A stretch of 64,000 bases of DNA from Bdellovibrionota bacterium (GTDB lineage: Bacteria > Bdellovibrionota_C > UBA2361 > JAFLCA01). Below, in pieces: positions 37,262 to 63,777 of this stretch (position 1 is the stretch's first letter; the number at the start of each line of letters is the position of its first letter). The stretch spans positions 3,624-67,623 of the forward strand of contig JAYRHW010000189.1 of NCBI GenBank assembly GCA_041907145.1, given 5' to 3'. The position numbers were made by a program, and so were the translations under genes. Below the pieces are notes generated by a model that worked only from the letters and a program-made list of their open reading frames with translations, did no database searches and was not told the origin of the DNA.

Positions 37262-38176
37262 TTAGTTTGAGAGGATATTCCGTGGGAGAAAATCGGCGCT
37301 GAGCGTGCGAACGAGGGCTTCCCCCAACGCCGTATCCTGTCCGTTAATGCTTATTCTGATTGCCTTGATTTTTGACCAGTCATCGCCTGGGATAAATGAC
37401 GTACGCGTAGTGCCGTCTTGCATCAGAGCCTGGACCTGAAAGTCGTTGATGCCATCGACGACATTCAGCGGATTCGCATTGTCCTGATTAACGATGATTT
37501 GCAGCACTCCGTTCTGCACGCGGTATCGCCACTCCTCAAGAATGTAGAGTGAAGAAGATCCGACATTATAGGTATTCTGCCACGACCCCCCGCTCCGCGT
37601 CAGGAGATACTGAGAACCCGTAGAACTTTCAGCCGAGTAATTAAAATATTCTCCTAGTTTAGTAGAACGATTGTAGGCAAAAATCCTCAAGACATGTGCG
37701 GCATCCGCGAGTCGCGTCGCGCTCCATTTATTGTAGCTCGTCGTATTTGAGGTTTTGTCGCAGCCGGATTGCGCTTGAGCGTTGTCCGCCACGATAACCG
37801 TCGTGTTCCCACTGCCGGCGCTTATCGACTGACAGAAATTGAAGACCTCGTCTACCGTGTTACGGCGAATGACGAGCTGATCGGGGGCGCCTGCGCCACC
37901 ATCCGTAATTTCAATGGCGGGAAAAGTCGAAAATAGGTTCTCACCCGCCTGACGAATGTCCATTCCCATAATGTCGAGGGCGCTGCGTAGGTTTTGGTTA
38001 ATGCGTGTGCGAACGAGATCATATTTGTACAGTCGGCGGTTGGAGGTGGTGGCGCTCAGCGTGAGCGCAAGCAAGAGCAGCCCGAGAAACGAGGTGACGA
38101 GGAGCTCGATGAGAGTGAAGCCCCTAGCGGAGACGAGTGTAGACCGTCTCCGTTTGAAATACGATGCCACCTGCAT
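37262..38176 (-). CDS. pilW: PilW-like type IV minor pilin (prepilin N-terminal methylation domain)
   Basis: ARG/FTLIELLVTSFLG prepilin cleavage site with a hydrophobic helix. Start placed at the internal Met (the track ORF extends to 38257), which overlaps the pilV end by ~50 nt. Confidence 0.65.
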   Translation of the reverse strand: MQVASYFKRRRSTLVSARGFTLIELLVTSFLGLLLLALTLSATTSNRRLYKYDLVRTRINQNLRSALDIMGMDIRQAGENLFSTFPAIEITDGGAGAPDQLVIRRNTVDEVFNFCQSISAGSGNTTVIVADNAQAQSGCDKTSNTTSYNKWSATRLADAAHVLRIFAYNRSTKLGEYFNYSAESSTGSQYLLTRSGGSWQNTYNVGSSSLYILEEWRYRVQNGVLQIIVNQDNANPLNVVDGINDFQVQALMQDGTTRTSFIPGDDWSKIKAIRISINGQDTALGEALVRTLSADFLPRNILSN

Positions 38177-38504
38177 ACAAAACTCGGATAGCAAGATGTC
38201 GATTATTTGAAGAACTGCAAAGGCTGAGATTTTCACAATAACTTGTCTGCACCACATAATTCCGGCCGCCTGCGCTTTGATTGCTAGACGTAGTTCCCGA
38301 CGCCGGCATGGTCGGCGGATCGACTAGTCTCAGCTCGTCCAACCTGCGCTGCGCCAGCGCGGCGGCTCCCGAGCGCACTTCAGTATCAGTGTTGCGCTTC
38401 AAATGACTGACAAACGTGCTCGCCATAGTCGCCGACACAATCAAGAACAGCAGCATCGACACCATGACTTCGAGTAAGGTAAAACCAGAGGCTCCCTTCA
38501 TCAA
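38124..38504 (-). CDS. pilV: PilV-like type IV pilus minor pilin
   Basis: MMKGASG/FTLLEVMVSMLL prepilin signal. The ATG at ~38501 overlaps the upstream gene's stop as ATGA. Confidence 0.75.
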   Translation of the reverse strand: MMKGASGFTLLEVMVSMLLFLIVSATMASTFVSHLKRNTDTEVRSGAAALAQRRLDELRLVDPPTMPASGTTSSNQSAGGRNYVVQTSYCENLSLCSSSNNRHLAIRVLYAGGIVFQTETVYTRLR

Positions 38505-38953
38505 ACCCCCTGAAATCGGACACCGCCGCCGAGAAGAATCTCCACGGTACGGGAGCCACTTTGATTGTCGTTGATAGTTACTTCGGTATTACTGTCGGAC
38601 AGCCCGCGAGCGGTAAAGCATACCGCCCAACCGATACTGGCAAGCGACGCGCCGGTAGGCAGCGCCAAAGTCAACGAGGTATCAGGGACAGGTGCCGCAT
38701 CGCTGCAATTCATTCCTGCGCGAGTGATAACTGAGGATGTCGAAGTGGGGACGATGATGTATGCCGAAGTCGAGGAGATGGCTCGCGCGCGTGCCTGCTT
38801 CAAGAATCCAAGCAGCTGCGCCGCTCCATTCTCGGCGGGACTGCTCAGCGCCTTGAGATTCATCAAGGCGATGCCGGACAGAACCCCGATCAAGACAAGC
38901 ACGACCAGAATTTCTATGACGGTAAATCCACCAGCAAGACGACACCGACCCAC
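38501..38953 (-). CDS. FimT/GspH-like pseudopilin (GTG start)
   Basis: RLAGG/FTVIEILVVLVLIGVLSGIA prepilin-type N-terminus. Length 150 aa. Confidence 0.7.
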   Translation of the reverse strand: MGRCRLAGGFTVIEILVVLVLIGVLSGIALMNLKALSSPAENGAAQLLGFLKQARARAISSTSAYIIVPTSTSSVITRAGMNCSDAAPVPDTSLTLALPTGASLASIGWAVCFTARGLSDSNTEVTINDNQSGSRTVEILLGGGVRFQGV

Positions 38954-41220: not shown

Positions 41221-41447
41221 AGCAATTCCGCGCGGTATTAATAGCTCTCCGATGCACTAAGGCCGAACATTGAGACCACCGCAACTGCCCTTTGTCAATA
41301 GCACTAACTCGTGTGAATGGTGATTCTAATACTGTCGATTTGATAGCCAATTTCTTGCTTCCCCGTATTTGATCTAGGTTTTGAATTATGTAAAGTTAGT
41401 GGAAAGCGGCGAGGACTAGATTGTCCTTCGCCTCGAGTTGGAACCCC

Positions 41448-41777
41448 ATGATCGGAAAGCCGGGTCCTTTTCAAATTGTCGAAAGCGAAGGTTGCGGTCT
41501 CGTCGATGCCCCGATGAACGCCCCGCGCCGAAGATATTGTTGTTCAAATTACGCCACCTGTTTAGACCTAGCCGCTGCCCTCAATTGGGACAACTTCACC
41601 TGCCGCGGTTGCAGCGGAGAAATTGAAGAGACGCTCTACTGGAGAGCTCATCAGGCTAGCAAAAAAGATAATGTTGCTCGTACTATCTGCGATCTGCCCG
41701 GCATCAAGTACGTGGCCCCGGAGCCCTCAGGTACCTCCGTCGCGATGGAGCCCCTCAAGTTGGTGGTTAAGCGTTAG
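41448..41777 (+). CDS. small Cys-rich hypothetical protein
   Basis: Eight Cys in ~110 aa (CGLVD...RYCCSNYATCLD...FTCRGCSG). The track ORF starts at TTG 41421. An imperfect hairpin GGCGAGGAC-N6-GTCCTTCGCC sits immediately upstream of and overlapping the TTG. Confidence 0.4.
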   Translation: MIGKPGPFQIVESEGCGLVDAPMNAPRRRYCCSNYATCLDLAAALNWDNFTCRGCSGEIEETLYWRAHQASKKDNVARTICDLPGIKYVAPEPSGTSVAMEPLKLVVKR

Positions 41778-41791
41778 CCCAAGGCTTACCG

Positions 41792-43768
41792 TTAATTCAC
41801 TTGCCGAGCTGCAATAAATAGCCGTTCCACATTGCCGTAAATCACGCCTTCAAGCTGCGGCACATTAATCACATAACTGTTCAGTGTTGCAGTGACGCTA
41901 TACGAATTGCCGTAGTCGACCGTAAAATTGGCTCGGCCTTGGGAATCGGTCATCGCCGTCTCCCCGGTTCCTAGTAATATCGCCGCATACGGCATCGGAT
42001 TTCCTAAAGTATCCCGAACCGAGACGGTCAGCGTGTATTGCTTCGGCGCAACCTGGAAATTCACAGAGGTATCGCCGCTAGCGTAGCCGGACATCTGACG
42101 GAACACCAAGCCGCTGGCCTCGGCCCTCAAGCTATACTGACTAGGTCCTGGAAGGTTCTTGAGCTGGTACCGCCCGTCGGGGCCGGTGAATGCCGTGTAC
42201 TGACCCTTCTCGAGCGACAAGGTCAGTTTGGCGCCCGATACCGGCTGCCCGGCTGATCCGGTAACCATACCCGACATCACGAAGGAAATCGGGGATGGAA
42301 TCGGCGTTGGTGTAGCCGTTGGCGCAGGTGTCGGCGTTAGAGTTGGAACTGGAGTCGGCGTTGGTATTGATGGCGTCGGTGTGGGGGCCGGAACAGAGAC
42401 GGCCGAAAGCAACATGTTATACGCATCGACGTAGCGGCTGTTTATCACTCTACCGGTGAGCGACGGGATCGAACGCGCCGAGTCTAGAAGAGTCTTTTTT
42501 AGTTCAGTGGCGTGTAAACTTGGGCGGAACGACTTAAGCAGCGCTATGGCGCCAGTTATATGCGGACACGCCATCGAGGTGCCCTGCAGGTACACGTATT
42601 TGTTGCCTGGGTATGTGCTGGCAATTGAAACACCAGGTGCCGCAATCATGACGCTGCTTCCACCGTAATTGGAGAATGAGGCCAGGTCACCGTTGGAGTC
42701 TACTGCAGCGACTGAAATCACATTAGACAAAGGATAGCTGGCCGGATACTGAGGCGAGCTGTCCATATTGATGGATGAGTTGCCGGCCGCCGCGATGAAG
42801 AGAATATCAAGATCACGCGAAGCGGCAATCGCAGCCTCAAGTTCCGGAATTCGACCGCCGCCGCCCCAGGAATTGTTGGTAGCAACGATGTTCACTCCGC
42901 TCTTCTTGAGGTTGTTTACATAGTCCAGAGCCCTAATTGCATCGTATAGTTGGCCACTGCCCTGAGAGTTCAAGAACTTTACCGGGATTATTTGTACCTT
43001 CCCTGCGATGCCGGCAACGCCCAGATTGTTGTCAAAGGATGCACCGATAGTTCCACTGACATGCGTGCCGTGCCCATTATCGTCAAAAGGGTTGCCGTTG
43101 CTGCTGACCGCGTTGAATCCATGAATGTCGTCGACTATGCCGTTCCCATCATCGTCTCGATTGTTGCCAGCAATTTCTCGCGGATTGGTCCAGATGACAT
43201 CGGCGAGATCGGGATGGGTGTAGTCGGCACCCGTGTCAATGACTGCCACTATCGTGTCCGGAGAGCCGGTACACATGTCCCAGGCCTGCGTCATTTTCAT
43301 CGACGATACCGCCCATTGGTAGGCCAAATAGGTATCTCCCGGGCTCTTGAGCGCATTGAATACGACGTTCAGACTGCAAGAGAAACCGCGATTCACCGTA
43401 TGCTGATGGACATTGATGCGGCCCGCCAAACCAGCACGACGAACTTTCAAAACTTCTGCACGATTTCTCGCTTTGAGAGCGGCGCAGGGATTCCAGCGGG
43501 TCACCGATGCTAAGTCAGAGGCCTGAGGCTCACCATCAAGGGGCGTATCGGCCTCGACCACCAGTGTCGCATGGTCCGTTTCATCCGCGATAAAGAGCTC
43601 GCGGGGAGAGGCCTCCTCTAACGCATCGAGAGCCTTTTGTTGAAGCGGCGCAGCAAGCTCCCGCTTCATGACATACTGGCCCTTGACGTAGGTATCAGTG
43701 ACCTCGACCTCCTGAGCAAAAGCCGATCCGGCAGCAAGCAACAGTGAAAGTAGCGCGATACGTTTCAT
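41792..43768 (-). CDS. secreted subtilisin-family (S8) serine protease with Pro/Thr linker and two C-terminal carboxypeptidase-regulatory-like domains
   Basis: Signal peptide MKRIALLSLLLAAGSAFA; catalytic triad motifs AVIDTGADYTHPDL, HGTHVSGTIGA, GTSMACPHITG; linker PAPTPTPSIPTPTPVPTLTPTPAPTATPTPIPSP. Strong GAGGAGG RBS. Confidence 0.9.
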   Translation of the reverse strand: MKRIALLSLLLAAGSAFAQEVEVTDTYVKGQYVMKRELAAPLQQKALDALEEASPRELFIADETDHATLVVEADTPLDGEPQASDLASVTRWNPCAALKARNRAEVLKVRRAGLAGRINVHQHTVNRGFSCSLNVVFNALKSPGDTYLAYQWAVSSMKMTQAWDMCTGSPDTIVAVIDTGADYTHPDLADVIWTNPREIAGNNRDDDGNGIVDDIHGFNAVSSNGNPFDDNGHGTHVSGTIGASFDNNLGVAGIAGKVQIIPVKFLNSQGSGQLYDAIRALDYVNNLKKSGVNIVATNNSWGGGGRIPELEAAIAASRDLDILFIAAAGNSSINMDSSPQYPASYPLSNVISVAAVDSNGDLASFSNYGGSSVMIAAPGVSIASTYPGNKYVYLQGTSMACPHITGAIALLKSFRPSLHATELKKTLLDSARSIPSLTGRVINSRYVDAYNMLLSAVSVPAPTPTPSIPTPTPVPTLTPTPAPTATPTPIPSPISFVMSGMVTGSAGQPVSGAKLTLSLEKGQYTAFTGPDGRYQLKNLPGPSQYSLRAEASGLVFRQMSGYASGDTSVNFQVAPKQYTLTVSVRDTLGNPMPYAAILLGTGETAMTDSQGRANFTVDYGNSYSVTATLNSYVINVPQLEGVIYGNVERLFIAARQVN

Positions 43769-43774
43769 CTCTTG

Positions 43775-46700
43775 CTACCTCCTCGCTGCTCTAGACTTCG
43801 GTTTGGGGGTCGGCGCGACCTTCTTCTTGGATCCAGTACTCGAACTTCCGGACGAAGAATTGGGACGAACGCGGACCGCAAAGTGCAACCCACCGAGATC
43901 GGATTCCTTCTTGTCAAGATCCTCGGTCCATCCCACGTACGATACCGGCACCGAGGTTACTTCCAAGCGCCCGGTGGCTGATTCGCCAGAGAGCTCGATG
44001 CGGCAATAGTCGTCAGGGAGGATGCCGTTCCAGCGGAAGTTGCTATCAATACCGAAGGAGTAGCGGCCCATGGTCGCGCAGTTGGCGATGATCTTTATAT
44101 CGAAAGTCTTCAGTTGGCTCTTCTCGCTGGCCGACAGTTTACGTCCATTTTGGCTGCTCTTGAGTTCTCCGCCCATAAGGAAGGCCATCGGGGTCGGGGT
44201 AGCGCTCGGAATCGGACTCGGAGTCCAGGTCGGCGTGGCGGTTGGGGTATCGGTAGGATCCGGAGTTTCGCCAGGTTTTGGAGTCGCTGTCGAGGTCGGA
44301 GTTGCCGAAGGCGTCGCCGTTGCAGTTGGCTGCACGCACTGAGTTAAGCCTGATGCCTTGGTGTCATGGAGGCTGCCGAAGGCGTAAATGCGTACCGTAT
44401 TGGCACTATTGAAGTCGCGCGGAGTCTCAAAGGTAGTATCGCTATTTGCCGCAGCCACGAAGCTGCCACGGAAGTTAGTGGCGTACATATCCCAATCGAC
44501 CTGCACATTTGAATTGTTCGAATTACGGACGCGCCACATGAGCTTGGAACTTGGATCGTCGGAACATAGGGACGTCAAGCGCAAGAGGGCCGGCGAGGTC
44601 GGAGTCGCAGTCGGAGTTACTGTAGGTGTCCTTGTCGGAGTAGCAGTAGCCGTCGCAGTCGGAGTTCTGGTCGGAGTCGCCGAATTAGTAGCCGTTGGCG
44701 TACTCGTCGGAGTAAAGGTTGGTGACGGAGTTCTTGTCGGGGTCGCAGTGTTCGTCGGCATCGGCGTGCTCGTTGCCGTCGGAGAATTGGTTGCTGTCGG
44801 CGTACTTGTCGGGGCTACCGTCGGAGTAACGCAAGGACCCTCGTAGTCATACGGATGCTTGTCGAGGTGCTGCTCATGAGCTTTGCCCTTCGACATGCTC
44901 ATCGTTTGCGTGGATTCCGGATTACCGGGCGCTACGTGACAGAAGACTATCTCCCCGTCGTTCGTAGGTGTAGCGCTGGCGGTGGCTGTTACGGTCGGGG
45001 TGGTCGTAACCACCGGCGTCTTGGTCGGAGATGGTGTTACGGTAGGAGTTGCCGTATTTGTAGCCGTTGGGGTTCTCGTAGCCGTAGCAGTCGAAGTCGC
45101 CGTCGGAGTAATAGTCGCCGTCGCCGTGAATGTTGCTGTCGGCAAGGGCGTAGCAGTACTAGTAGCTGTCGGGGTTATCGTCGAAGTCGGAGTTCTCGTC
45201 GGAGTGGCAGTTACCGTAGCCGTATTTGTTGGGGTGGCGGTCCTCGTTGCCGTCGGAGTTACCGTTGAAGTCGACGTCACGGTCGGAGTTGGCGTCGCAG
45301 TACGAGTCGGCGTCGCAGTCGGGGTGTTCGTTGCTGTCGGAGTTGATGTCGGTGTTGGACCAACCTGAGCACTGGAACGGAAATTGAGATAGTAGAGGTC
45401 GCGTGCCGCAGTTCCAGTGTATTGGTCCGGCGTCATGGACGAATCCTGGTATTCAGCCGTAACGATGTACTCCGAGCCCTCCGGAACCGTGATGGAGTAG
45501 ATACCCTGCTCGTTCGTTTCAGTGCTGCGGGTCCGCTCGTCATAATTGAGAGTTATCTTGGCGCCTGGAATTTGATAGCCCCAGAAATCGAGCACCGTTC
45601 CGGATAACACGAAGCTGCGCACGTTTATTTCGCGGAAATCTATGTCGGGAGTGTCGCAGCGAATGTTCGGGATGGAAACCGCAGCCGGATCAAAATAGCG
45701 ATCATTATACTCAACTGACACCCAGTTATTTGCAATGGCAGGTGAAGTAAACTGATAGTGCCCCTGCTCATCCGTGTAGGTAACAACATCATGATTGTTG
45801 AGGATTGCCGCTTGTGAAATCGGCTGACCAGACTGATCGATCACTCGCCCGCTGACGACGTAGGAGTCCTGGACCGGGCAAATGGAACCCCGGGTCGGCA
45901 GCCGTGTTGATGGCACCGGCAAAACAGCGCGGAAATTGACTCCGGCGTATGCGCGCATCACGTCGACGAACGAAATTTGCAGCGGATCAAAAACCATATT
46001 GCCCGAAGCGACTCGTAGCGAATAGCTGCCGCCTTCATTAACGCTGAGGACGTATTCTCCGCGGGAATTCGTGGTGCCAACATTTACTTCGTTAAGATAG
46101 ACGGCAGCGCCGGGCTGAGGAAAGCCATCAGGGTTATAGACAACGCCGCTAATGCCCTGCTTCGGGGTTCCAGACTGTCCAGCTCGCGCGATGAATTCAC
46201 CGCTCGAGGCACTACTCGTGGCGCAAAAGCGGAAAGGTGTGGTGCTCACGTGATCAAGGGTGTAGCCAGACAGAGCACCGATCACGGGAACATAGTCATC
46301 TCGCTTGCCGCTGTTGTCGTCATTACAGAAAGTCTGCTGCTCGGCCGGAAAGTAAATCTTTCCGCTTTGATCCGTGATTTGCGATAGAGTCGGACCATCT
46401 TCGTACAAATCCGGTACGGTAATGCGAGCACCGCTCATGGGATCCGAGTTAGCGTCTAAGACCTGCCAAGCGACTGCGTTCTGCTTCACTCCGTTAGTGA
46501 CGGCATGAAATAGGATCTTGGTAGTGGGGCCTGTAGGTGTAAGCGCGATGCGCGGGGGCGAGAACTGAAAGTTTCCCTTCGGGACAAGATTGATAATGGT
46601 GTTCGGGGCGACGCCAAGCTGTGCGGTGGTAATCCTGAGATTTCCGCTGCCGTCAGTACTGCGGGCGGACTTCGTCAGCGCAGCCACTCCGGAATCTCCC

Positions 46701-47491
46701 AGGAACTCAACTCCCGCCACGCCCGCTCCCGTCGAACTCTCGACCCGGATTTGATAGGTAACCGACGAGCCGACTGACTGCGGTGCGACCGGTGCGCATG
46801 CGGCAGTAACATATCCGTTCACGACATTAGCGTTAGGACATACTTGATTGGCTGGAGTCGAGCGCGATGTGAAGATGCAATCTTGATTGCTCGGACTAAC
46901 TGCAAATGCAGTTACATAGTTGTTATCAAGATCGGCATCGCGATCGTTACAGACTGTCGCAAGACGAGGGACGGAGAAGAAAACAGCACCGTCCCGGTCG
47001 GTCACTCGTTGCGAAGGACCAAGCGCGTTCGGGCTAGTCACTGGAATGCCTTCCAATCCCCGACCAGTCGAATTCGCGACCACCCAGCGCACTACCGACG
47101 ATTGATTTCCGCTAAGCACTCTGACGTCGCAGTTGAATTGCGGACAATTTTCGCGACTTACGCGGAGTTCAGGGGGATCGAATGAGACATTTCTGGAAGG
47201 ATGATAGTAGGTCACCGTGGGGGTGGCCGAATCGAGATTCTCCGTGATAATTGACACCAGACCTGAACTGGAGCTGAACATAGCGGGCTGGCGGCTCACA
47301 CCGTAGTTACCGGTTACCGATATCCCGTCGAGCGGAAGGTCGGCATCTGAGTAAAAGCGGATTTTAAAGGTATCAGCGTGCGCAGGCTTTATGACGAGCA
47401 GCACAGCAACCGTAGCCAGCAAAAATGCACTGACGAACCGCGCAAGACGCAGGAGCTGACCGAGTGATGTACCGTGGGACTGTGACTGCAC
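43775..47491 (-). CDS. giant secreted/surface protein: N-terminal signal/anchor, multiple carboxypeptidase-regulatory-like (CarbopepD_reg-type) domains, >300 aa of Thr/Pro/Ala tandem repeats, basic C-terminal tail
   Basis: 1238 aa. Repeated G(V/R)V(I/Y).xxGxPxxGAxV...TDxxGxYxF-type units, then three TP-rich blocks (e.g. [57 protein letters not shown]...), and a C-terminal [17 protein letters not shown] tail. GTG start. Confidence 0.8.
44185..45365. repeat. coding low-complexity tandem repeat region (ACN/CCN codon repeats encoding Thr/Pro/Ala linker blocks)
   Basis: Visible degenerate periodic DNA (gtcggagt.gc.gt.. units) in three blocks. It produces spurious GV-rich ORFs on the opposite strand. 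Confidence 0.7.
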
Positions 47492-47741
47492 GCTGCTTTG
47501 TTCAAACTGCCGGGAGGCCTATTCCTCTCCGGTCACCCCAAGCCTTTCGTGCAATTTGCGCAAACCGTTGAGGTTCTGCGCCAGAAAATCTTGCCCCTTC
47601 AATAAGTTACGAAACTCCCCTACGCACTCCACCTAGGGCCGTACTACCAGTGCGATTGCCTCGGCTATATTGGCGTATATCCCTTAGTCCCGGCGCAGCC
47701 ACATTGGGGAGAAGAATCGGACTGGACCCGCCTGATTACGA

Positions 47742-50429
47742 CTAAGACCGAGGAGGCCCGCCTGTGGTGGCCTGATAGAGAGTATGGTGCAGGATTTCAA
47801 AGAGGCCCTTGGAGATATGAGGCGTCGAAATCAGTCGAGAAAGCGCTTGCTCCATGGCGGAGCGGCGAACGGGGTCCAATCGCATGAACCAGTGGAACGA
47901 CTTTGCCAACCCGGCCGCCACATTCGGATTGAATGCATCGACCTGCAAAATACGATCAGCGAAGAACGTGTACCCCTCACCCGATAATCGATGAAACTGC
48001 GGTAAATTGCCCGCAAACGTTCCATACAGGGAGCTTATCTTATTGGGATTCTTGGAATCGATGGCGGGGTTGCGTTCAAGCAACTTCACCACCTCAATCG
48101 CATCACCCGTGGGCACGGCCACTTGTGCATTTACCCACATGTCCATCACCACGGAATCCGCTCGCCACCGGTCATAGAAATGGGACAACGCCTGCCCTCT
48201 CTCCGGCCCGTCACCAAGAGCCAGGCACCTCAGTGCGGCGTAGGAGTCGGTCATATTATCCGCCGATCTGTATTGTTCAAATGCAGCCGCCACTGCCTCC
48301 GACTTCTCCTCGGAGACCAAATACCCCAAACAGACGTTCTTCAAAGACCTCCACCCCATTGAGTTCGAGTCCCGGCGATATATCCCGCCTAATCTCTTGC
48401 TTATGTCGCGATAGCTCCCCCAGAAGACTTCACGATTTCTACTCGTCAATGTCTGCAGGAAAAATCGTCGGGCAGCGAAGGCCGCGTCAAAGTCCGGGGT
48501 TTCAAGACTCATACACAATGAAAGCAAGCTCGGCATCATCAGGGCTTGAGCCCTCAATGCCGCATCAAATTTCTCATCCACCAACAGTCGCGCGAGAGCC
48601 TCGGAAACAGTAGTCGACACCTGAGGATCTCTTCCCTGCTTTATCGCGCTGTAAGCTTGCTGCAAACATCGAAGCCCCAGCCGCTGCCCGGCCTCATACC
48701 GATTGAAAGGATCACTGTCATGCGCAAGCAGAAACGCTAAGTCATCATCGCTGTAATCAAATTCAATCTTTACCGGAGCAGAAAAATTACGCAGCAGCGA
48801 TGGAACCGGCCTCTCCTTCAAACCCCTACACTCGACCGCAGCAGATTCGGCCCGCAGGTCGACATAGCTGCCTCGCTCGCTGAACTTTAGCCCTGGCACG
48901 GCATCAAGTTTTACATCCCGCCCCGCTGCATCGAGCAGTCCAATCCGTATCGGAATGACAAACGGCTTCACCTGCGCCTGGCCCTGTATCAACGGAGAAG
49001 ACTGAGAAAATTCCAGCCGATACCTGCCTGAAGCCGCGTCGAAAACTTCCCGAACCTTAACCACCGGAGTCCCAGCTTGAGAATACCAGAGTGCAAACTG
49101 CGAAAGGTCCTCTCCGCTCACGTCCTGCATGACCTGCAAGAAATCCTCGGTGCGTACAGCTTGTCCGTCAAAGCGGCGCAAATACTCTCGCACGGCCCGA
49201 TTGAAGACGCCTTCGCCGAGCAGTGTTTTCAACATTCCGATGACTTCGGCTCCCTTGCGATATACCGTCGAGGTATAGAAATTGTCGATTTCGATATACG
49301 ATTCGGGGCGAATCGGATGCGCATTGGGGCCCGCGTCCTCGAGAAATTGGCGCTCCCGCACAATTCGCACGTTCTTAATGCGCTCCACCGCGGCCGAATT
49401 CATGTCAGCCGAGAAATCCTGCTCACGGAGCACCGTAAGTCCTTCCTTGAGCGTAAGTTGAAACCAATTTCGCAGCGTAACCCTGTTGCCCGTATAGTTA
49501 TGGAAATACTCGTGGGCGATGACCGCTTCGATTTCAATATAGTCCTCATCACGAGCCGAGCTGGGGTCGGCCAAGACATACATGGCGTTAAAAATGTTCA
49601 ACCCCTTGTTCTCCATGGCGCCGGCATTGAAGTCATCGACAACAACAACGACATAAGTATCTAGGTCATACTCCAGTCCATAAACATCCTCGTCCCAGCG
49701 CATGGCTTTCTGCAGGGACTCCATGGCAAATCTGCAGCGCTCTTCATTGCCATGGCTGCAGTAAATCTGAAGCAGGATGGATCTCCCACTCTTGGTCACA
49801 AAACGATCTTCGATGACGCCCAAATCTCCAGCTACCAACGCAAACAAATAGCAAGGTTTTAGGAAGGGATCCTTGAACGTTGCTTCGTGCCTGCCGCCGG
49901 CCAGCACTCGCTGCGAGGTCTTGTTTCCGTTGCACAAAAGCACCGGATACTGTTTCTTGTCCGCCTCGATGGTAACCTCATAGGCCGTCATCACGTCCGG
50001 ACGATCAGGGAAGTAGGTCAAACATCGAAACCCCTCGGCCTCCATTTGGGTGCAAAGGATCCCCTTTGACTCGTAGAGGCCCAATCCCGATTTATTGTCT
50101 CGCGGCTTAATCGCCGTGACTATCGAGAGTTCTGCAGACTCGCCGATGTCCGGAATACTCAGCGATTCACGGCTCAGCACAAATTCTGTCTCGCGAAGCA
50201 GCCTGCCATTAACCGCGATGCTTCGAAGTTCGAGATTGCGGCCGTCGAGGCGCAGAGCTTCCCCGGACATTGCTGTGCCTCGCTTCAAGCTTAATGTCGA
50301 AGTTACGACCGTCTCTGCGGCTCGAATATCGACCTGCAGACGGATCGCCGGCACGAGATAGGCCGGTGGACGATAGTCACTCAGCAGTACTTGTTTTGGG
50401 GATTCCTGGTCCGAACTCATCGCAATCAT
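47742..50429 (-). CDS. pepN: aminopeptidase N (M1 family)
   Basis: GAMENKGLNIFN and HEYFHNYTGNRVT...E zinc-binding motifs. Start placed at the internal Met (MIAMSSDQ... / LLSDYRPPAY matches the PepN N-terminus). The track ORF extends to 50984. Confidence 0.9.
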   Translation of the reverse strand: MIAMSSDQESPKQVLLSDYRPPAYLVPAIRLQVDIRAAETVVTSTLSLKRGTAMSGEALRLDGRNLELRSIAVNGRLLRETEFVLSRESLSIPDIGESAELSIVTAIKPRDNKSGLGLYESKGILCTQMEAEGFRCLTYFPDRPDVMTAYEVTIEADKKQYPVLLCNGNKTSQRVLAGGRHEATFKDPFLKPCYLFALVAGDLGVIEDRFVTKSGRSILLQIYCSHGNEERCRFAMESLQKAMRWDEDVYGLEYDLDTYVVVVVDDFNAGAMENKGLNIFNAMYVLADPSSARDEDYIEIEAVIAHEYFHNYTGNRVTLRNWFQLTLKEGLTVLREQDFSADMNSAAVERIKNVRIVRERQFLEDAGPNAHPIRPESYIEIDNFYTSTVYRKGAEVIGMLKTLLGEGVFNRAVREYLRRFDGQAVRTEDFLQVMQDVSGEDLSQFALWYSQAGTPVVKVREVFDAASGRYRLEFSQSSPLIQGQAQVKPFVIPIRIGLLDAAGRDVKLDAVPGLKFSERGSYVDLRAESAAVECRGLKERPVPSLLRNFSAPVKIEFDYSDDDLAFLLAHDSDPFNRYEAGQRLGLRCLQQAYSAIKQGRDPQVSTTVSEALARLLVDEKFDAALRAQALMMPSLLSLCMSLETPDFDAAFAARRFFLQTLTSRNREVFWGSYRDISKRLGGIYRRDSNSMGWRSLKNVCLGYLVSEEKSEAVAAAFEQYRSADNMTDSYAALRCLALGDGPERGQALSHFYDRWRADSVVMDMWVNAQVAVPTGDAIEVVKLLERNPAIDSKNPNKISSLYGTFAGNLPQFHRLSGEGYTFFADRILQVDAFNPNVAAGLAKSFHWFMRLDPVRRSAMEQALSRLISTPHISKGLFEILHHTLYQATTGGPPRS

Positions 50430-50449
50430 GAATTGTATCGCTGTCTGGG

Positions 50450-51370
50450 CTATTTCGGATTTTCGCCTTTCATGCGCAGCCACACAAGGCCGCCGAGCAC
50501 GGCAAGAACGTAGGACTTGGCTCGCAATACTACGGCCACCCCAAGAGCTTGGGCCGGAGTTGCACCGATTCCATGCAAGAAGAAGTAGAACGCCCCCTCC
50601 TGAATACCCAGCCCATTCGGCGTAGCAGGAATCGACCCCACCAGTAAAATGATCGGCAGGACCACGAACAAATCCCAAACAGGAGGATGTTCCCACCCCA
50701 CTGCCTGGGCAGCAACTACGGTATTTACCACGGTGAGAGAGTGATAGAGAAAGGACAGTATCAGCGTTGTTCCCAAGAGACGAACATTCCCTCGCGCTAG
50801 CCGAAACCCGGATTGAACTTTGTGCATGCCCACGAGCACGGGCCGCAAAATGGCAAAACGCTCGAGAAGATGGGCCGGACGATCTGCCAAGGCAAGTACG
50901 GTGATAATGCCCAGACCCACGCCGACCAAGGCGATAGCAATACGTATCTCCACCGTCACATTGTCCACAAACCACATGAAGCACAAAGCCAAGAGCACCA
51001 TGGCCAAGAGGCCGGTGTAACGTTCAAGAATAGTCGCGGCCAGCGCCTCGTGTTGCCCAACTTTCTTGCCGATGTACCAACTGCGGACGATGTCTCCCCC
51101 GACATAGGACGGCATAAGCAAGTTCACGAAATAGCCGACCAGATATAAACCAAAGAGACGCACGAGCGAGACCGGCGCCTTGAGAAACTCGATGAACAAC
51201 TTCCACTTCAGCGCACTAACATAAATAAGGGCGATAGATAGCAAGGCCAGGCGCCCGATATCCCGCATCGAAAGGTCCTCAAGCGCGACAAGCAGCTCCT
51301 GGGGACTGACTAGATAGACAAGCCCAACCAAGATCGCCAGCGCAAATAACGTGCGAAGAACCTTCTTCAC
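50450..51370 (-). CDS. polytopic membrane protein, flippase-like / LPG-synthase-TM (UPF0104)-like candidate
   Basis: 306 aa with ~8 hydrophobic helices. 4-nt overlap with the upstream GT-C gene. Family assignment is by gestalt only. Confidence 0.55.
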   Translation of the reverse strand: MKKVLRTLFALAILVGLVYLVSPQELLVALEDLSMRDIGRLALLSIALIYVSALKWKLFIEFLKAPVSLVRLFGLYLVGYFVNLLMPSYVGGDIVRSWYIGKKVGQHEALAATILERYTGLLAMVLLALCFMWFVDNVTVEIRIAIALVGVGLGIITVLALADRPAHLLERFAILRPVLVGMHKVQSGFRLARGNVRLLGTTLILSFLYHSLTVVNTVVAAQAVGWEHPPVWDLFVVLPIILLVGSIPATPNGLGIQEGAFYFFLHGIGATPAQALGVAVVLRAKSYVLAVLGGLVWLRMKGENPK

Positions 51371-60093: not shown

Positions 60094-63000
60094 CTAAGGT
60101 ACCGTGAAAAGCTTACCCGCGGCGTTTAGATAGAGCTTTTCCATCTCGGCAGCGTTAAATGGCCGGGAGCCGATTCTCCCGAAGATACTGACCTGATGCC
60201 CAGTTTCATCAACGGCGCGGTCGCGGTCCAGCGGCTTCGAAATATAGAGAGCCGGGCCATGCGTGGCACGATGGGCAATCACCAGCGGCTTTACTTCGGG
60301 GGAAAATCCATAAAAGGTTGGTACACGCTCCGGATCGGTTAACTGGAGGACCTTGAATCCGTTCTTACCATCCGCAAGATAGCCAAAGAGCGAGGCATTC
60401 GTAGTGGCCACTTTTACATCATTCAGATCATCGATTTTTCCTCCATCATTGAAGACCTGATAGACTTTGGGCTGTTCAGGCCGTTCAATATCCACGATGA
60501 CTAAACCTTGCGAGCCCCCCGCTACATAGGCATAGGTACGCGCCACATAAAGCCCACGAGCGTCAGGGAGGGCGATATGCGCATGCACGATTTCGTGCGC
60601 CTTATCTATATGCGTGATGTCTACGACGTGAAAGCCATCCGCTGCGGTGACAAAGGCGTAGCGAAACTGCACGGCGATGCCTGTGGGGTGGTTCATCGGC
60701 ACAGTCGCCAGCACTTTTGGCTGGAGCGGTTCATCAAGATCGATGATTACCAGCGAATTTGTGGTTGCAATGAATGCCCGAGCACCTGCCAACGTAATGG
60801 CTCGTGCCCCAGTCAAAATTCCCCCTTCGTTCCAGGTAAGCGCACGACTTAGAAAGTTGTTGCTTGGTTCGCGATCAGCCAGCGTGTCGACATTGACGGC
60901 AATTAAACCCTCCTCGCTATCGGTAATATATGCGTAGTGGTAGATCGGATGCATGGGTTGTTCGAGATTCTCCTCGAGCGGCTTTCTAAACGGGGCTATC
61001 GGCATAGTGGTGGGGAATGCGAACGAAGTGGCATTCGTGGTTGGTACATGCAAATCCTGTCCAAGCGGAGAGACCGGTGAGGTCGTGATTCGTTCCGAAA
61101 AGCCCTTGTTCCCGACGTTTGCGATATCATAGCAGCGGAAGCCTCCGGTACCCGCGGTCGTGCAGGCATATTCGCCTCGAGCCTGGATAGTATTCGTGAC
61201 CCCACCGGCACCATGATGAGTCTGAGATTCCAGCAGTTCCTGTCCCCGATCTTGATGCGCCTTGAAGTTATCGGGGTAGGCAAATCGTTGCAAATAACTG
61301 CCGATGACTGCTTGAGGCTCGCTCCACTCGGTGACTTGCACAGCCTCGAGGCCGGCACTGCCGGTTGCTACGTAGCTGTGGTAGCCCATGAAGTTGACGA
61401 AGTTAGTTCCCAAAAGCAAAAGCTGCGCCATGATTGCGTTGTTGTCATTCGCCTTCGAGACGTGACAGTCATTACAACCCTTCGTTTCGACCGTGCGCAC
61501 GGTATGCGGGAAATGCGGCGCAAAAGCCTGCGAGCTAAACCCGGCCGCCGATATCGGCGGCTGCTGTACGTAGATCTTCTGCCGGTTGATATCAGTAGAG
61601 CTAAGTATGAGCGCGCTTGAAGATCGCACCGGCACGATTTTGTTTCCCTTCGCCGGTCCGTGCAGGCCAATCTGATACATTTCATCACGGGCAACCTGAG
61701 GATTGTAACTGGCCCAATTGCGAGTGAGCTTGCCGTCATAGTGGTTCGATGTCTTCATCCAGTTTGCCTGAATCGGCAAGTGGCAGCCCGCACACCCGGT
61801 AATCCACGAGCTATGGCAGGTGAAACAAGCCATTTTATCATTCGAGTGTGCAAGCAGTTTAACTTGGTCCGCTGCCGCATCGACCTGCTTCAAACTGACC
61901 GAGCTGGGCGTGGTTTGCTCAGCGGTCAGCCGAGCTGTAAGTTTCGCCTTGGCGGACTTGGCGTTGAAGTCGGGACTGTTTGGATCGACCGAGTCCCTGA
62001 CCTGCCTGACCTTCCACTCAAGCCCCTGCGTAAGAGTCGAACGTTGATAAAGCTCACTCCCCTTCCATAGGAAGCGCAGATCGCCGAAGGGGGTGCGCAT
62101 GGTACTTAGATCTCGACCGCCCGGAGGCGCTGCGGGACCGGATGTCTTGAGCGTGGCACGCGCCGCCACTGAACCGTGGCAATCCTCGCAGCCAATCTCA
62201 ACCGCCTGGGCGACTTCGCCGTACATATTGCCGTCGCCATGCGCATCCTGGTCAAAGTGACAATCAACACAGTGCATGCCCTTGTCGACATGAATGTCGG
62301 CCATATGCACGGCCTTTTTGAATTTATCGGGGTCGCTGGCAGAAACTAGCCGTCCCTTGGCATCTAGAAGATTACCCTTTCGATCACGCTTGAAAATGGC
62401 TCTAAAATTCCAACCATGACCGTGGTAATCGGCGAACTGAGTATCCTTGAGTGTAGAATTCAGGTCGATGACGTTCTTCAAGAACTGGTTATCGGTCCAA
62501 AGCCCGCGAGCCGCGGCCTCTTCGGGATTGTGCTCCAAAGACTGATGCAATTCTTCATCGGTGGGGTTCCGTTGCTGCTTTGGCCACATCGACGGAGCAT
62601 CCGACTCATAATCCCACATCGTATAACCAAGAAATGAGTTCACGAACATATTGGGCTGATGCATATGGCAAACCATGCACTGGCTTGTGGGAATGGCGCG
62701 TGAGAACTCGTGGCGCAGCGGGTGTCCCTCTTCATCCTTCGGAATGGTCGGATCGACGGTCTGTGTTTTGCCATCATTGCCAAATTTGGCGTAAGGACCG
62801 GAGTGTGAGGGATCCCTATCGTTAGCATAGACGACATGGCACCCTGTGCAGCCGCTGCTGCGGTAATCACCCGGATGATCGTTAGTTCCGAGAAACGACA
62901 AGTGCGGATCGTTGAGACGCGTCTTATGAATATTGAGCACCGGAATTGCTACTCGTGACCCGGTTCCCAGACCGCGGTTCGAAGCGCGAATATCAGGCTT

Positions 63001-63777
63001 GCCGGATTCTTCCAAAGGATTTGGCAGCCCAATTTCCGCAAAGCTGCTCTTAATGAACTGCCCGCCCCGCTCAAAGACACGAAAATTATCACCCGGCTGG
63101 ACTACCTCCCACTGCGGCAGTGGAATGAGCTTCTCGAGCGCTCCTCTCGCGATTAGCTCTGGAGTAGGCGGCTGAGTGGCATGAATCTCACGCGCCAATC
63201 CGTTTCTGTCATAGCTTTCTCCCAAAACATACTTCTTGTAGGGAAGAATGTTGTTGTTGTACGAAGCACCTCCCCAAAGCATGGCCGACGTTGTCATGAG
63301 ACTTCGTTCAGCTGCGTGTACTTCCTTGGCGTGACAACCGCCGCACGTCTCACGAGCCACGCGTAGATCTCCGGGATTGACGAAGCGCACAAACTCGGGC
63401 GGTTCTTTCAACAAATCAGTGTAGCTGTGCTTCGGATTGGCCGAACTGGGCCAGTTCTCCGGACTTCGGGGTAGCACATGCGCAGACTGCTTTGCATGCT
63501 CGTAGGCAGCTGTACCGGGGGAAAGGTCCGCGGCCCGCACCGCCGAATTTCCGCCATGGCAATCCGTGCAGCCGATAACTACCGCCGGGTTCTTATGCAT
63601 GGTCAGCGTATCAGACTTGCTGTGACAGTCCTTGCACCCCAGGCTGTTGCTCCCCATTTGGCTGACACTGATGTTGAAGTTCAGCGGCGCAGGCTTTTCA
63701 TCCTCGGCATAGACCAGCCCCACGCCCGTCAGGGCAACGAGCAGAAGAGAACCGATATGGAGAAGAGCGGTTCGCAT
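60094..63777 (-). CDS. decaheme c-type cytochrome fused to C-terminal LVIVD-repeat beta-propeller (1227 aa, signal peptide)
   Basis: Ten CxxCH motifs counted: CKDCH, CTDCH, CGGCH, CTGCH, CMVCH, CVDCH, CEDCH, CFTCH, CAGCH, CNDCH. Signal peptide MRTALLHIGSLLLVALTGVGLVYA. C-terminal repeats SLVIIDLDEPLQPKV, GFHVVDITHIDKAHEIV, GLVIVDIERPEQPKVYQVF, GFKVLQLTDPERVP. Confidence 0.8.
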   Translation of the reverse strand: MRTALLHIGSLLLVALTGVGLVYAEDEKPAPLNFNISVSQMGSNSLGCKDCHSKSDTLTMHKNPAVVIGCTDCHGGNSAVRAADLSPGTAAYEHAKQSAHVLPRSPENWPSSANPKHSYTDLLKEPPEFVRFVNPGDLRVARETCGGCHAKEVHAAERSLMTTSAMLWGGASYNNNILPYKKYVLGESYDRNGLAREIHATQPPTPELIARGALEKLIPLPQWEVVQPGDNFRVFERGGQFIKSSFAEIGLPNPLEESGKPDIRASNRGLGTGSRVAIPVLNIHKTRLNDPHLSFLGTNDHPGDYRSSGCTGCHVVYANDRDPSHSGPYAKFGNDGKTQTVDPTIPKDEEGHPLRHEFSRAIPTSQCMVCHMHQPNMFVNSFLGYTMWDYESDAPSMWPKQQRNPTDEELHQSLEHNPEEAAARGLWTDNQFLKNVIDLNSTLKDTQFADYHGHGWNFRAIFKRDRKGNLLDAKGRLVSASDPDKFKKAVHMADIHVDKGMHCVDCHFDQDAHGDGNMYGEVAQAVEIGCEDCHGSVAARATLKTSGPAAPPGGRDLSTMRTPFGDLRFLWKGSELYQRSTLTQGLEWKVRQVRDSVDPNSPDFNAKSAKAKLTARLTAEQTTPSSVSLKQVDAAADQVKLLAHSNDKMACFTCHSSWITGCAGCHLPIQANWMKTSNHYDGKLTRNWASYNPQVARDEMYQIGLHGPAKGNKIVPVRSSSALILSSTDINRQKIYVQQPPISAAGFSSQAFAPHFPHTVRTVETKGCNDCHVSKANDNNAIMAQLLLLGTNFVNFMGYHSYVATGSAGLEAVQVTEWSEPQAVIGSYLQRFAYPDNFKAHQDRGQELLESQTHHGAGGVTNTIQARGEYACTTAGTGGFRCYDIANVGNKGFSERITTSPVSPLGQDLHVPTTNATSFAFPTTMPIAPFRKPLEENLEQPMHPIYHYAYITDSEEGLIAVNVDTLADREPSNNFLSRALTWNEGGILTGARAITLAGARAFIATTNSLVIIDLDEPLQPKVLATVPMNHPTGIAVQFRYAFVTAADGFHVVDITHIDKAHEIVHAHIALPDARGLYVARTYAYVAGGSQGLVIVDIERPEQPKVYQVFNDGGKIDDLNDVKVATTNASLFGYLADGKNGFKVLQLTDPERVPTFYGFSPEVKPLVIAHRATHGPALYISKPLDRDRAVDETGHQVSIFGRIGSRPFNAAEMEKLYLNAAGKLFTVP

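Follow-up and report, generated by a model that had tools for sequence, protein, structure and literature searches.

The DNA analysed here, hereafter the window, is a stretch of 64,000 nucleotides (nt) from a Bdellovibrionota bacterium (contig JAYRHW010000189.1), and contains two adjacent genes that encode a large protein and a protease of the S8 (subtilase) family. In the list of open reading frames (ORFs), the large-protein gene (43775-47491) starts with GTG, ends with TAG and encodes 1238 amino acids (aa), and the gene for its partner, the protease (41792-43768), starts with ATG and encodes 658 aa. Both genes, and all of the features within them described below, are on the minus strand. Both are genuine genes and not chance ORFs, because full-length relatives are numerous for each of them and the pairing recurs at every locus examined.

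The junction of the two genes reads ...GCGAGGAGG TAG caagag ATG, with a spacer of 6 nt, so that the ATG starts at the 7th base past the stop codon. A ribosome binding site (RBS) for the protease gene, GAGGAGG (43778-43784), lies within the final codons of the large gene, at a distance of 9 nt from the ATG. The first-pass annotation, which was made from the sequence of this DNA alone, reported this distance of 7 nt and this strong RBS, and both are confirmed. It was also right in describing the RBS at the GTG start of the large gene as weak, since no Shine-Dalgarno-like sequence is found before this codon. An internal terminator, which the annotation named as evidence that would speak against co-transcription, is not seen, as no terminator-like site is detected between the two genes by a consensus scan and nothing in this region exceeds shuffled expectation. 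The protease gene is translationally coupled to the large gene. The downstream border of this two-gene cassette is a convergent small ORF (41421-41777, plus strand), which ends 15 nt from the stop codon of the protease gene and encodes a Cys-rich protein of 118 aa with a CC..C......C..C pattern and without a Pfam match.

Between the large gene and pepN, the next gene upstream, is an interval of 250 nt (47492-47741), which is probably the promoter and 5' leader of the large gene. Neither a sigma-70 consensus site nor an Rfam match is found in this interval, and a weak terminator-like hairpin is present within it at 47730-47718. When the interval is aligned with the corresponding region of locus L001 (880-1158), the closest relative, short conserved islands are observed upstream of the large gene (CTAAGG.ATACGCC, CCTAGG...TAACTTA.TG and GC.CGAAAG..TTGGG), and these islands may be promoter or operator elements. 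Other candidates in this region are rejected. A regular-expression search in front of the large genes finds no sigma-28-like promoter, an apparent enrichment of CGATA/TCGATA upstream is lost after correction for the post-hoc choice of the motif, and an RNA element in the leader is dropped for want of an Rfam match.

Recurrence of the gene pair across loci

The genomic contexts of the pair were compared at 10 independent loci (the window, L001, L002, L003, L005, L008, L009, L010, L011 and L012), which were reached from seven homologues of the large protein and, conversely, from three homologues of the protease. The partner gene is located directly downstream of the large gene on the same strand at all of these loci, separated from it by -4 to +48 nt, while all other flanking genes differ between them. 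The pairing persists over sequence divergence down to approximately 25% identity. The upstream genes of L011 and L012 are confirmed as members of the large-protein family (E = 1e-116 and 1e-95, respectively). The partner is a protease at eight of the 10 loci and consists of the C-terminal tandem beta-sandwich alone (170-175 aa) at the other two. In the window, the downstream gene likewise ends in a tandem beta-sandwich module, at a gap of 6 nt. Six further pairs are implied beyond these loci by contigs of identical length, and at the P0043 locus the large gene is followed by a gene for a protein of 674 aa, which overlaps it by 4 nt and is without a Pfam match on record. The adjacency at all 10 loci, with all other neighbours different, supports the proposal of the first-pass annotation that the two genes form a dedicated unit, and this unit is conserved in uncultured bacteria of the Bdellovibrionota type. 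The two genes appear to have stayed together, with joint expression, throughout deep divergence, and the tandem beta-sandwich of the partner appears to be under constant selection.

Large protein and its family

The large protein starts with a signal peptide (aa 1-39, 47375-47491), whose putative cleavage site is placed from the sequence. Homology begins at aa ~25-60 of each match in all relatives, and this position corresponds to the mature N-terminus of the large protein. The signal peptide is followed by four beta-sandwich domains without a Pfam match, N1-N4 (aa 40-445, 46157-47374), and three CarboxypepD_reg (transthyretin-like) domains, C1-C3 (aa 446-705, 45377-46156). Self-comparison indicates that N1-N4 is a duplicated two-domain unit, in which N1 is similar to N3 (E = 1e-6) and N2 to N4 (E = 5e-6), and that C1-C3 are mutually similar (E = 2e-8 to 2e-5). 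The cysteines in N1-N4 are conserved across the family alignments. C1-C3 are the only domains recognised when the large protein is scanned with Pfam; PF13620 (CarboxypepD_reg) matches with 64.9 bits against a cut-off of 32.3 over three stretches at aa ~446-705, PF13715 matches with 60.2 bits, and matches to SdrD_B and SpaA are below their own cut-offs. No recognisable catalytic domain is present in the large protein of the window.

The remainder of the large protein alternates between Pro/Thr-rich segments, which a composition scan locates at aa 708-844, 886-971 and 1054-1103, and small domains. Linker 1 (aa 708-844, 44960-45370) is followed by a small Cys/His motif domain (aa 846-887, 44831-44956), linker 2 (aa 888-961, 44609-44830), an Ig-like beta-sandwich termed D2 (aa 962-1052, 44336-44608), linker 3 (aa 1053-1101, 44189-44335), a C-terminal beta-sandwich termed D3 (aa 1102-1205, 43877-44188) and a tail that is first Ser-rich and then polybasic (aa 1206-1238, 43778-43876). 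The Cys/His domain has Pro/Thr linkers on either side, is matched by no Pfam model, and is defined by a motif of ~40 residues, ICHxPPGNPxNxxT...AHxxHGDxxGxC, the residues of which could bind a metal or form a disulfide knot. Family members have 0-3 copies of this motif, which is also found in P0007, P0011, P0015, P0020, P0033 and others. D2 is conserved in family alignments A2 and A4, with the pattern LTSxCSxxP..LxWRVxN..V.WD.YG, in which two cysteines are invariant. D3 is also conserved in the family alignments, with the pattern G.LKG.NGR.L ... VTSRP..Y ... GLHFAVR. At the DNA level, the linkers are compositional and weakly repetitive; a recent expansion of DNA repeats is rejected, as the arrays are weak and short. 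The GC skew peaks at +0.159 at 44001-46000, with a mostly negative background, and this peak coincides with the coding region for the Pro/Thr linkers; it most likely reflects codon composition and not replication.

The first-pass annotation also suggested that the basic C-terminal tail of the large protein could serve as a sorting signal. The tail is present, but it matches no recognised type of sorting signal: neither an LPXTG motif nor a hydrophobic stretch or membrane helix is found at the C-terminus. Most relatives have a basic tail as well, of very variable length (10-60 aa), but a few, including P0054 and P0056, have none. From the signal peptides, which are of the Sec type in both proteins, and the conserved cysteines, the large protein and the protease are predicted to be extracytoplasmic.

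The structures of the conserved regions were predicted with AlphaFold2 (AF2). The model of N1-N4, built from an alignment of 53 sequences, is all-beta, with a mean predicted local distance difference test score (pLDDT) of 94.4 and a predicted template modelling score (pTM) of 0.89. These high scores suggest that N1-N4 is a fixed rod. When this model is compared with PDB by Foldseek, tandem sandwiches of the CnaB/pilin type are found, including those of Bacillus anthracis TIE, Cna B1B2, BcpA and SdrD. The E-values span 3e-11 to 1e-7 (3e-11 for 6fwv, 6e-9 for 1d2p and 5e-8 for 3kpt), and the Foldseek probability is 1.00 for these three structures, at a sequence identity of only 7-12%. The predicted fold class of N1-N4 is thus adhesin-stalk-like, without a sequence relationship to the matched adhesins. 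This result is in line with the surface adhesin suggested by the first-pass annotation. D2 and D3 are modelled as Ig-like sandwiches with a mean pLDDT of 87.9, which is 91-97 within the domains (95-97 for D2 and ~91-96 for D3), and Foldseek finds nothing for them in PDB below E = 1e-3.

N1-N4 shares the fold of a tandem CnaB/prealbumin-like rod with the adhesins and pilins of Gram-positive bacteria, such as Cna, SdrD, BcpA and B. anthracis TIE, which include the microbial surface components recognizing adhesive matrix molecules (MSCRAMMs). Unlike the sortase-anchored CnaB adhesins, the large protein has neither LPXTG nor a C-terminal membrane anchor. Unlike in MSCRAMMs, the rod is N-terminal and is the most conserved part of the protein, and conserved cysteines of the disulfide type are present. 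The organisms that carry the pair have genes for a flagellar hook, pseudopilins and AsmA/YhdP-type proteins, and this gene content suggests that their envelope is Gram-negative.

A word-index search with the whole large protein detects only the protein itself and two weak Pro/Thr-biased matches. Such searches are uninformative because of the Pro/Thr bias, and the family was then recovered by an exhaustive HMMER search with aa 40-705 of the large protein (the N-module, 666 residues). This search gives 312 matches, 61 of them at E ≤ 1e-30, and approximately 55 cluster representatives align over the whole N-module at 25-48% identity. In this family, the N-module is always located directly after the signal peptide, and the proteins are 900-2160 aa long. 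The family plan consists of a signal peptide, the invariant N-module (a rod of ~660 aa with seven beta-sandwiches of the CnaB/transthyretin type), a variable middle, D2 (~85 aa, one or more copies), D3 (~105 aa) and usually a basic tail. The large protein of the window, which served as the query, has the signal peptide, the full N-module, D2 and D3. The contents of the variable middle include Pro/Thr linkers, a large insert with SHYxRxGxLRF, TSP3-like CGCG/Asp repeats and the Cys/His motif. Because different members carry different inserts, this region appears to behave like a cargo slot. The insert with SHYxRxGxLRF is ~450 aa long, is without a Pfam match, and is found in the middle of several among P0005, P0021, P0022, P0023, P0032, P0041 and P0044; the middles of other family members contain LamG-like or DUF3466-like inserts.

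Six diverse family members scanned singly with Pfam give nothing except CarboxypepD_reg-type matches. Every named member is a "hypothetical protein" from metagenome-assembled genomes labelled Bdellovibrionota, Bdellovibrionales or Deltaproteobacteria. A scan of genome contigs with the N-module of the window gives no match, a scan with the family member P0011 recovers its own genome alone, and scans of metagenome contigs with alignments A5 and A6 give no confirmed relative. No published description of the family is found in a literature search. The large-protein family is an uncharacterised, lineage-restricted version of a theme that is known, in which a modular secreted protein of beta-sandwiches is accompanied by an accessory subtilase.

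Partner protease and its constant module

The protease starts with a signal peptide (aa 1-18, MKRIALLSLLLAAGSAFA, 43715-43768), the putative cleavage site of which is followed by QEV. The subsequent region of ~130 aa (aa 19-150, 43319-43714), which precedes the region that aligns to a mature subtilase, MCP-01, is a putative propeptide by analogy with the biology of other subtilases; it is poorly conserved among the partners (14-33% identity). The catalytic domain (aa 151-455, 42404-43318) is matched by Peptidase_S8 (PF00082) at aa 171-431 with 187.7 bits against a cut-off of 21.8. Its triad, D178 (VIDTG), H233 (NGHGT) and S398 (GTSMA), is kept in all eight partner proteases, which suggests that the partner protease is catalytically intact. 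A Pro/Thr linker (aa 456-497, 42278-42403) identified by the composition scan connects the catalytic domain to a C-terminal tandem beta-sandwich module (aa 498-658, 41795-42277), which is delimited by Pfam and by collinearity with stand-alone partners described below. In this module, CarboxypepD_reg matches two stretches at aa 498-630 with 62.3 bits (cut-off 32.3), Big_1 matches with 28.5 bits, which is below its cut-off, and MG4 matches weakly; the module ends in the motif EG.xYG[ND]VER[LV]FI. These results and those for the large protein bear out the first-pass annotation, in that CarboxypepD_reg-like (transthyretin-like) beta-sandwiches and Pro/Thr linkers are present in both proteins and the S8 protease is intact. 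Named relatives of the protease are annotated as "S8 family serine peptidase". Approximately 95 clusters share its exact S8 plus CarboxypepD_reg architecture, with a length of 640-685 aa, while the next-best clade is without the C-terminal module and has a different length.

The best relative of solved structure is MCP-01, a deseasin from Pseudoalteromonas sp. SM9913 (PDB 3vv3), which matches aa 157-457 of the protease over ~300 residues with E = 6.1e-87, followed by the next solved subtilase at E = 6e-46. About half of the residues are identical between MCP-01 and the protease by a hand count of the alignment, and the DTG, HGTH and GTSMA motifs are the same. MCP-01 is a secreted collagenolytic protease with P-proprotein and PKD domains (PMC11294657). 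Both enzymes are secreted as precursors with a C-terminal beta-sandwich extension, which in MCP-01 (the PKD domain) serves binding and not catalysis (PMC11294657). In the protease of the window, unlike in MCP-01, a Pro/Thr linker is followed by two CarboxypepD_reg-type domains, and neither PKD nor P_proprotein is found in it by Pfam at E ≤ 1. It is a member of the S8 family with a catalytic domain close to those of deseasins, but without their defining C-terminal domains. In addition, it is always encoded directly after the large scaffold-like gene, an arrangement that is not described for MCP-01.

An alternative reading is that the two proteins are independent and merely co-regulated exoproteins, one a degradative protease with a substrate-binding module and the other an adhesin-like protein. 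MCP-01-type enzymes work alone on insoluble substrates (PMC11294657), the protease, which is equipped with a signal peptide and a propeptide region, looks autonomous, and the CarboxypepD_reg modules common to both proteins are widespread and promiscuous, as hundreds of unrelated multi-domain proteins match the query of the family search at aa 400-665 (the CarboxypepD_reg region). However, merely co-regulated proteins are rather improbable, because the two genes remain adjacent at all 10 loci, even where identity falls to ~25% and with none of the other neighbours kept, because the frequent 4-nt overlaps of start and stop codons imply selection for co-expression in fixed proportion, and because the protease clusters with the exact architecture are of the same order of number as the large-protein family.

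NCBIfam gives only sub-threshold matches for both proteins, namely mycosin, dentilisin PrtP and an anammox S-layer model. The mycosin match (TIGR03921, type VII secretion) is 141 bits against a cut-off of 278.75, and no ESX genes are present among the neighbours. The third match concerns the S-layer-like scaffold suggested by the first-pass annotation, and with it the reading in which the large protein would be an S-layer or envelope lattice protein and the protease its dedicated processing enzyme. The large protein is indeed large, predicted to be secreted and rich in Thr, Ser and Pro, with Ig-like domains, glycosyltransferase genes are located a few kb upstream, and the linker/beta-sandwich region of the protease gives a weak partial match to the model of the Kustd1514 S-layer glycoprotein (E = 1.6e-14). 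This sole S-layer match (NF052345) is, however, 52.3 bits against a cut-off of 1400 and is located at aa 434-613 of the protease, whereas the large protein is unmatched. The hypervariable middle with its inserted cargo domains is also unlike that of lattice-forming proteins, and the glycosyltransferase genes are not kept beside the cassette at other loci. An S-layer function is therefore very improbable.

In the dentilisin operon of Treponema denticola (prcB-prcA-prtP), the gene directly preceding that of the S8 protease encodes an accessory protein; protease and accessory protein are joined in a single surface complex, where the former cleaves the latter. The dentilisin PrtP model (NF033595) matches the protease of the window only partially (E = 7.7e-28, 97.5 bits against a cut-off of 300). 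The lipoprotein PrcA has no relationship to the beta-sandwich rod of the large protein, and no equivalent of PrcB is present in the window pair.

The partners without a protease domain are encoded at L008 (10203-10730) and L010 (7139-7651), which belong to a deep branch whose large proteins carry TSP3-like repeats. These small partners (170-175 aa) consist of a signal peptide and two CarboxypepD_reg-like domains, and match the final ~160 aa of the protease collinearly up to the C-terminus (E = 7e-16 for L010 and 3e-11 for L008), including the terminal motif, EG.x.G[DN][VI]ER[VL][FL]I. Their similarity to the CarboxypepD_reg domains of the large protein itself is much weaker (best E = 2e-4). 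Because two partners keep it without any protease domain, the constant element of the partner is the tandem beta-sandwich module and not the protease. This result lends indirect support to the idea of the first-pass annotation that the protease docks on the scaffold through shared domains, in that the partner is reduced to this module at L008 and L010.

The number of Pro/Thr-rich residues in the large protein is 118-273 at the eight loci with a protease partner and 0 at L008 and L010. This correlation is what would be expected if the large protein were a precursor and the subtilase its processing enzyme, which would cut the large protein in the Pro/Thr linkers or the basic tail and thereby release or mature its domains. 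The strict adjacency and translational coupling of the two genes are consistent with such processing, as is the precedent of dentilisin, in which PrtP cleaves PrcA, and the residues preferred by MCP-01 at P1, in a non-strict manner, are Pro or basic ones (PMC11294657), like those of the linkers and the tail. Nevertheless, the partner gene survives without the protease domain at L008 and L010, and the conserved function of the partner is for this reason probably not proteolysis. The correlation between linkers and partner type is one of eight loci versus two and is confounded by lineage and base composition, the genome of P0050 being visibly AT-rich, and a Pro/Thr linker is found in the protease as well. 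Processing as the function of the pair, which is the main alternative to the reading preferred below, is therefore unlikely, and the cognate maturation protease proposed by the first-pass annotation is disfavoured as the core function, although the linkers do track the protease-type loci.

Proposed function and genomic surroundings

The reading preferred here, held tentatively and with a little less than even confidence, is one of joint action outside the cytoplasm, with the large protein serving as a scaffold and the second protein as its docked partner. According to this reading, the large protein would be an extended stalk that is exported beyond the periplasm and associates with a surface or substrate, its variable middle would give target specificity, and electrostatic attraction of its basic tail to an anionic surface, for example lipopolysaccharide (LPS), would keep it in place. 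The tandem beta-sandwich would be the means by which the partner binds either the scaffold or the target shared with it, and would thereby position the protease, so that in most lineages the docked partner would deliver a protease of the deseasin type.

The arrangement is analogous to that of the scaffoldin and dockerin of cellulosomes, in which a non-catalytic, linker-rich scaffold stands beside an enzyme with a small conserved non-catalytic module. Pro/Thr linkers are typical of cellulosome-like extracellular systems. The likeness is only one of analogy: unlike in cellulosomes, there is one partner per scaffold, and neither cohesin nor dockerin is detected by Pfam and NCBIfam. A more elaborate form of the scaffold reading is that the pair is a modular display system of predatory Bdellovibrionota, in which a rod and a C-terminal anchor (D3 and the basic tail) flank a hypervariable cargo region, and the partner, fused to a protease in most lineages, plugs in through its tandem beta-sandwich. 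Such a system would be a beta-sandwich analogue of the scaffoldin/dockerin logic for contact with prey or substrate. The cargo regions of the relatives contain propeller-like inserts, Ca-binding TSP3-like repeats and Cys/His motifs. This elaborate form is quite unlikely to hold, while a role of the pair in predation would be conceivable under the scaffold reading in general.

Several points weigh against the scaffold and docked partner. The physical interaction of the two proteins is itself a proposal from sequence comparison, and beta-sandwich modules on secreted proteases usually bind substrates and not scaffolds, as does MCP-01's PKD domain (PMC11294657). For this reason, the small partners could bind the target of the large protein rather than the large protein. 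Only two loci with protease-less partners are seen, both in one deep branch. The fold matches of N1-N4 are generic, with low whole-chain TM-scores. A known signal for secretion across, or anchoring to, the outer membrane is not found by the Pfam and NCBIfam scans. In particular, the sorting domain of type IX secretion (T9SS) cargo is not detected, as no T9SS C-terminal-domain model matches either protein (NCBIfam scan, E ≤ 1), and the named relatives are from Bdellovibrionota-type bacteria and not from Bacteroidota.

The window contains genes for flagellin, pseudopilin, MutS, S1 and PurA, and looks like ordinary chromosome for this reason. The upstream pepN gene (47742-50984, minus strand) encodes an aminopeptidase N of 1080 aa (Peptidase_M1 with DUF3458), the first ~300 residues of which are without a Pfam match and represent an unusually long N-terminal extension. 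A gene for a protein with an LPG_synthase_TM domain is located within a few kb of the cassette, beside glycosyltransferase genes, both in the window (50450-51370, minus strand) and at L011 (10864-11898); this proximity may represent residual synteny or a link to envelope modification. Two pseudopilin-type genes (N_methyl, one of them GspH-like; 37262-38953, minus strand) are located ~3 kb downstream of the cassette, and a gene at 60094-63777 (minus strand) encodes a protein of 1227 aa with multihaem cytochrome c motifs (Cytochrome_C7 and c3) and LVIVD repeats. A functional link of the pair to neighbouring genes, namely those for pseudopilins, PepN, patatin and glycosyltransferases, was considered and dropped, as none of them is conserved beside the cassette elsewhere.

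N1-N4, which comprises ~400 well-folded residues, and three smaller domains are without a Pfam model, and could enter domain libraries and improve the annotation of metagenomes. Should the protease indeed cut the linkers, this subtilase would be linker-specific and might have practical applications. Bdellovibrio-like predators release numerous hydrolases, whose placement on the predator or the prey is poorly understood. The cassette described here is a testable candidate for an apparatus of enzyme display or adhesion in Bdellovibrionota.

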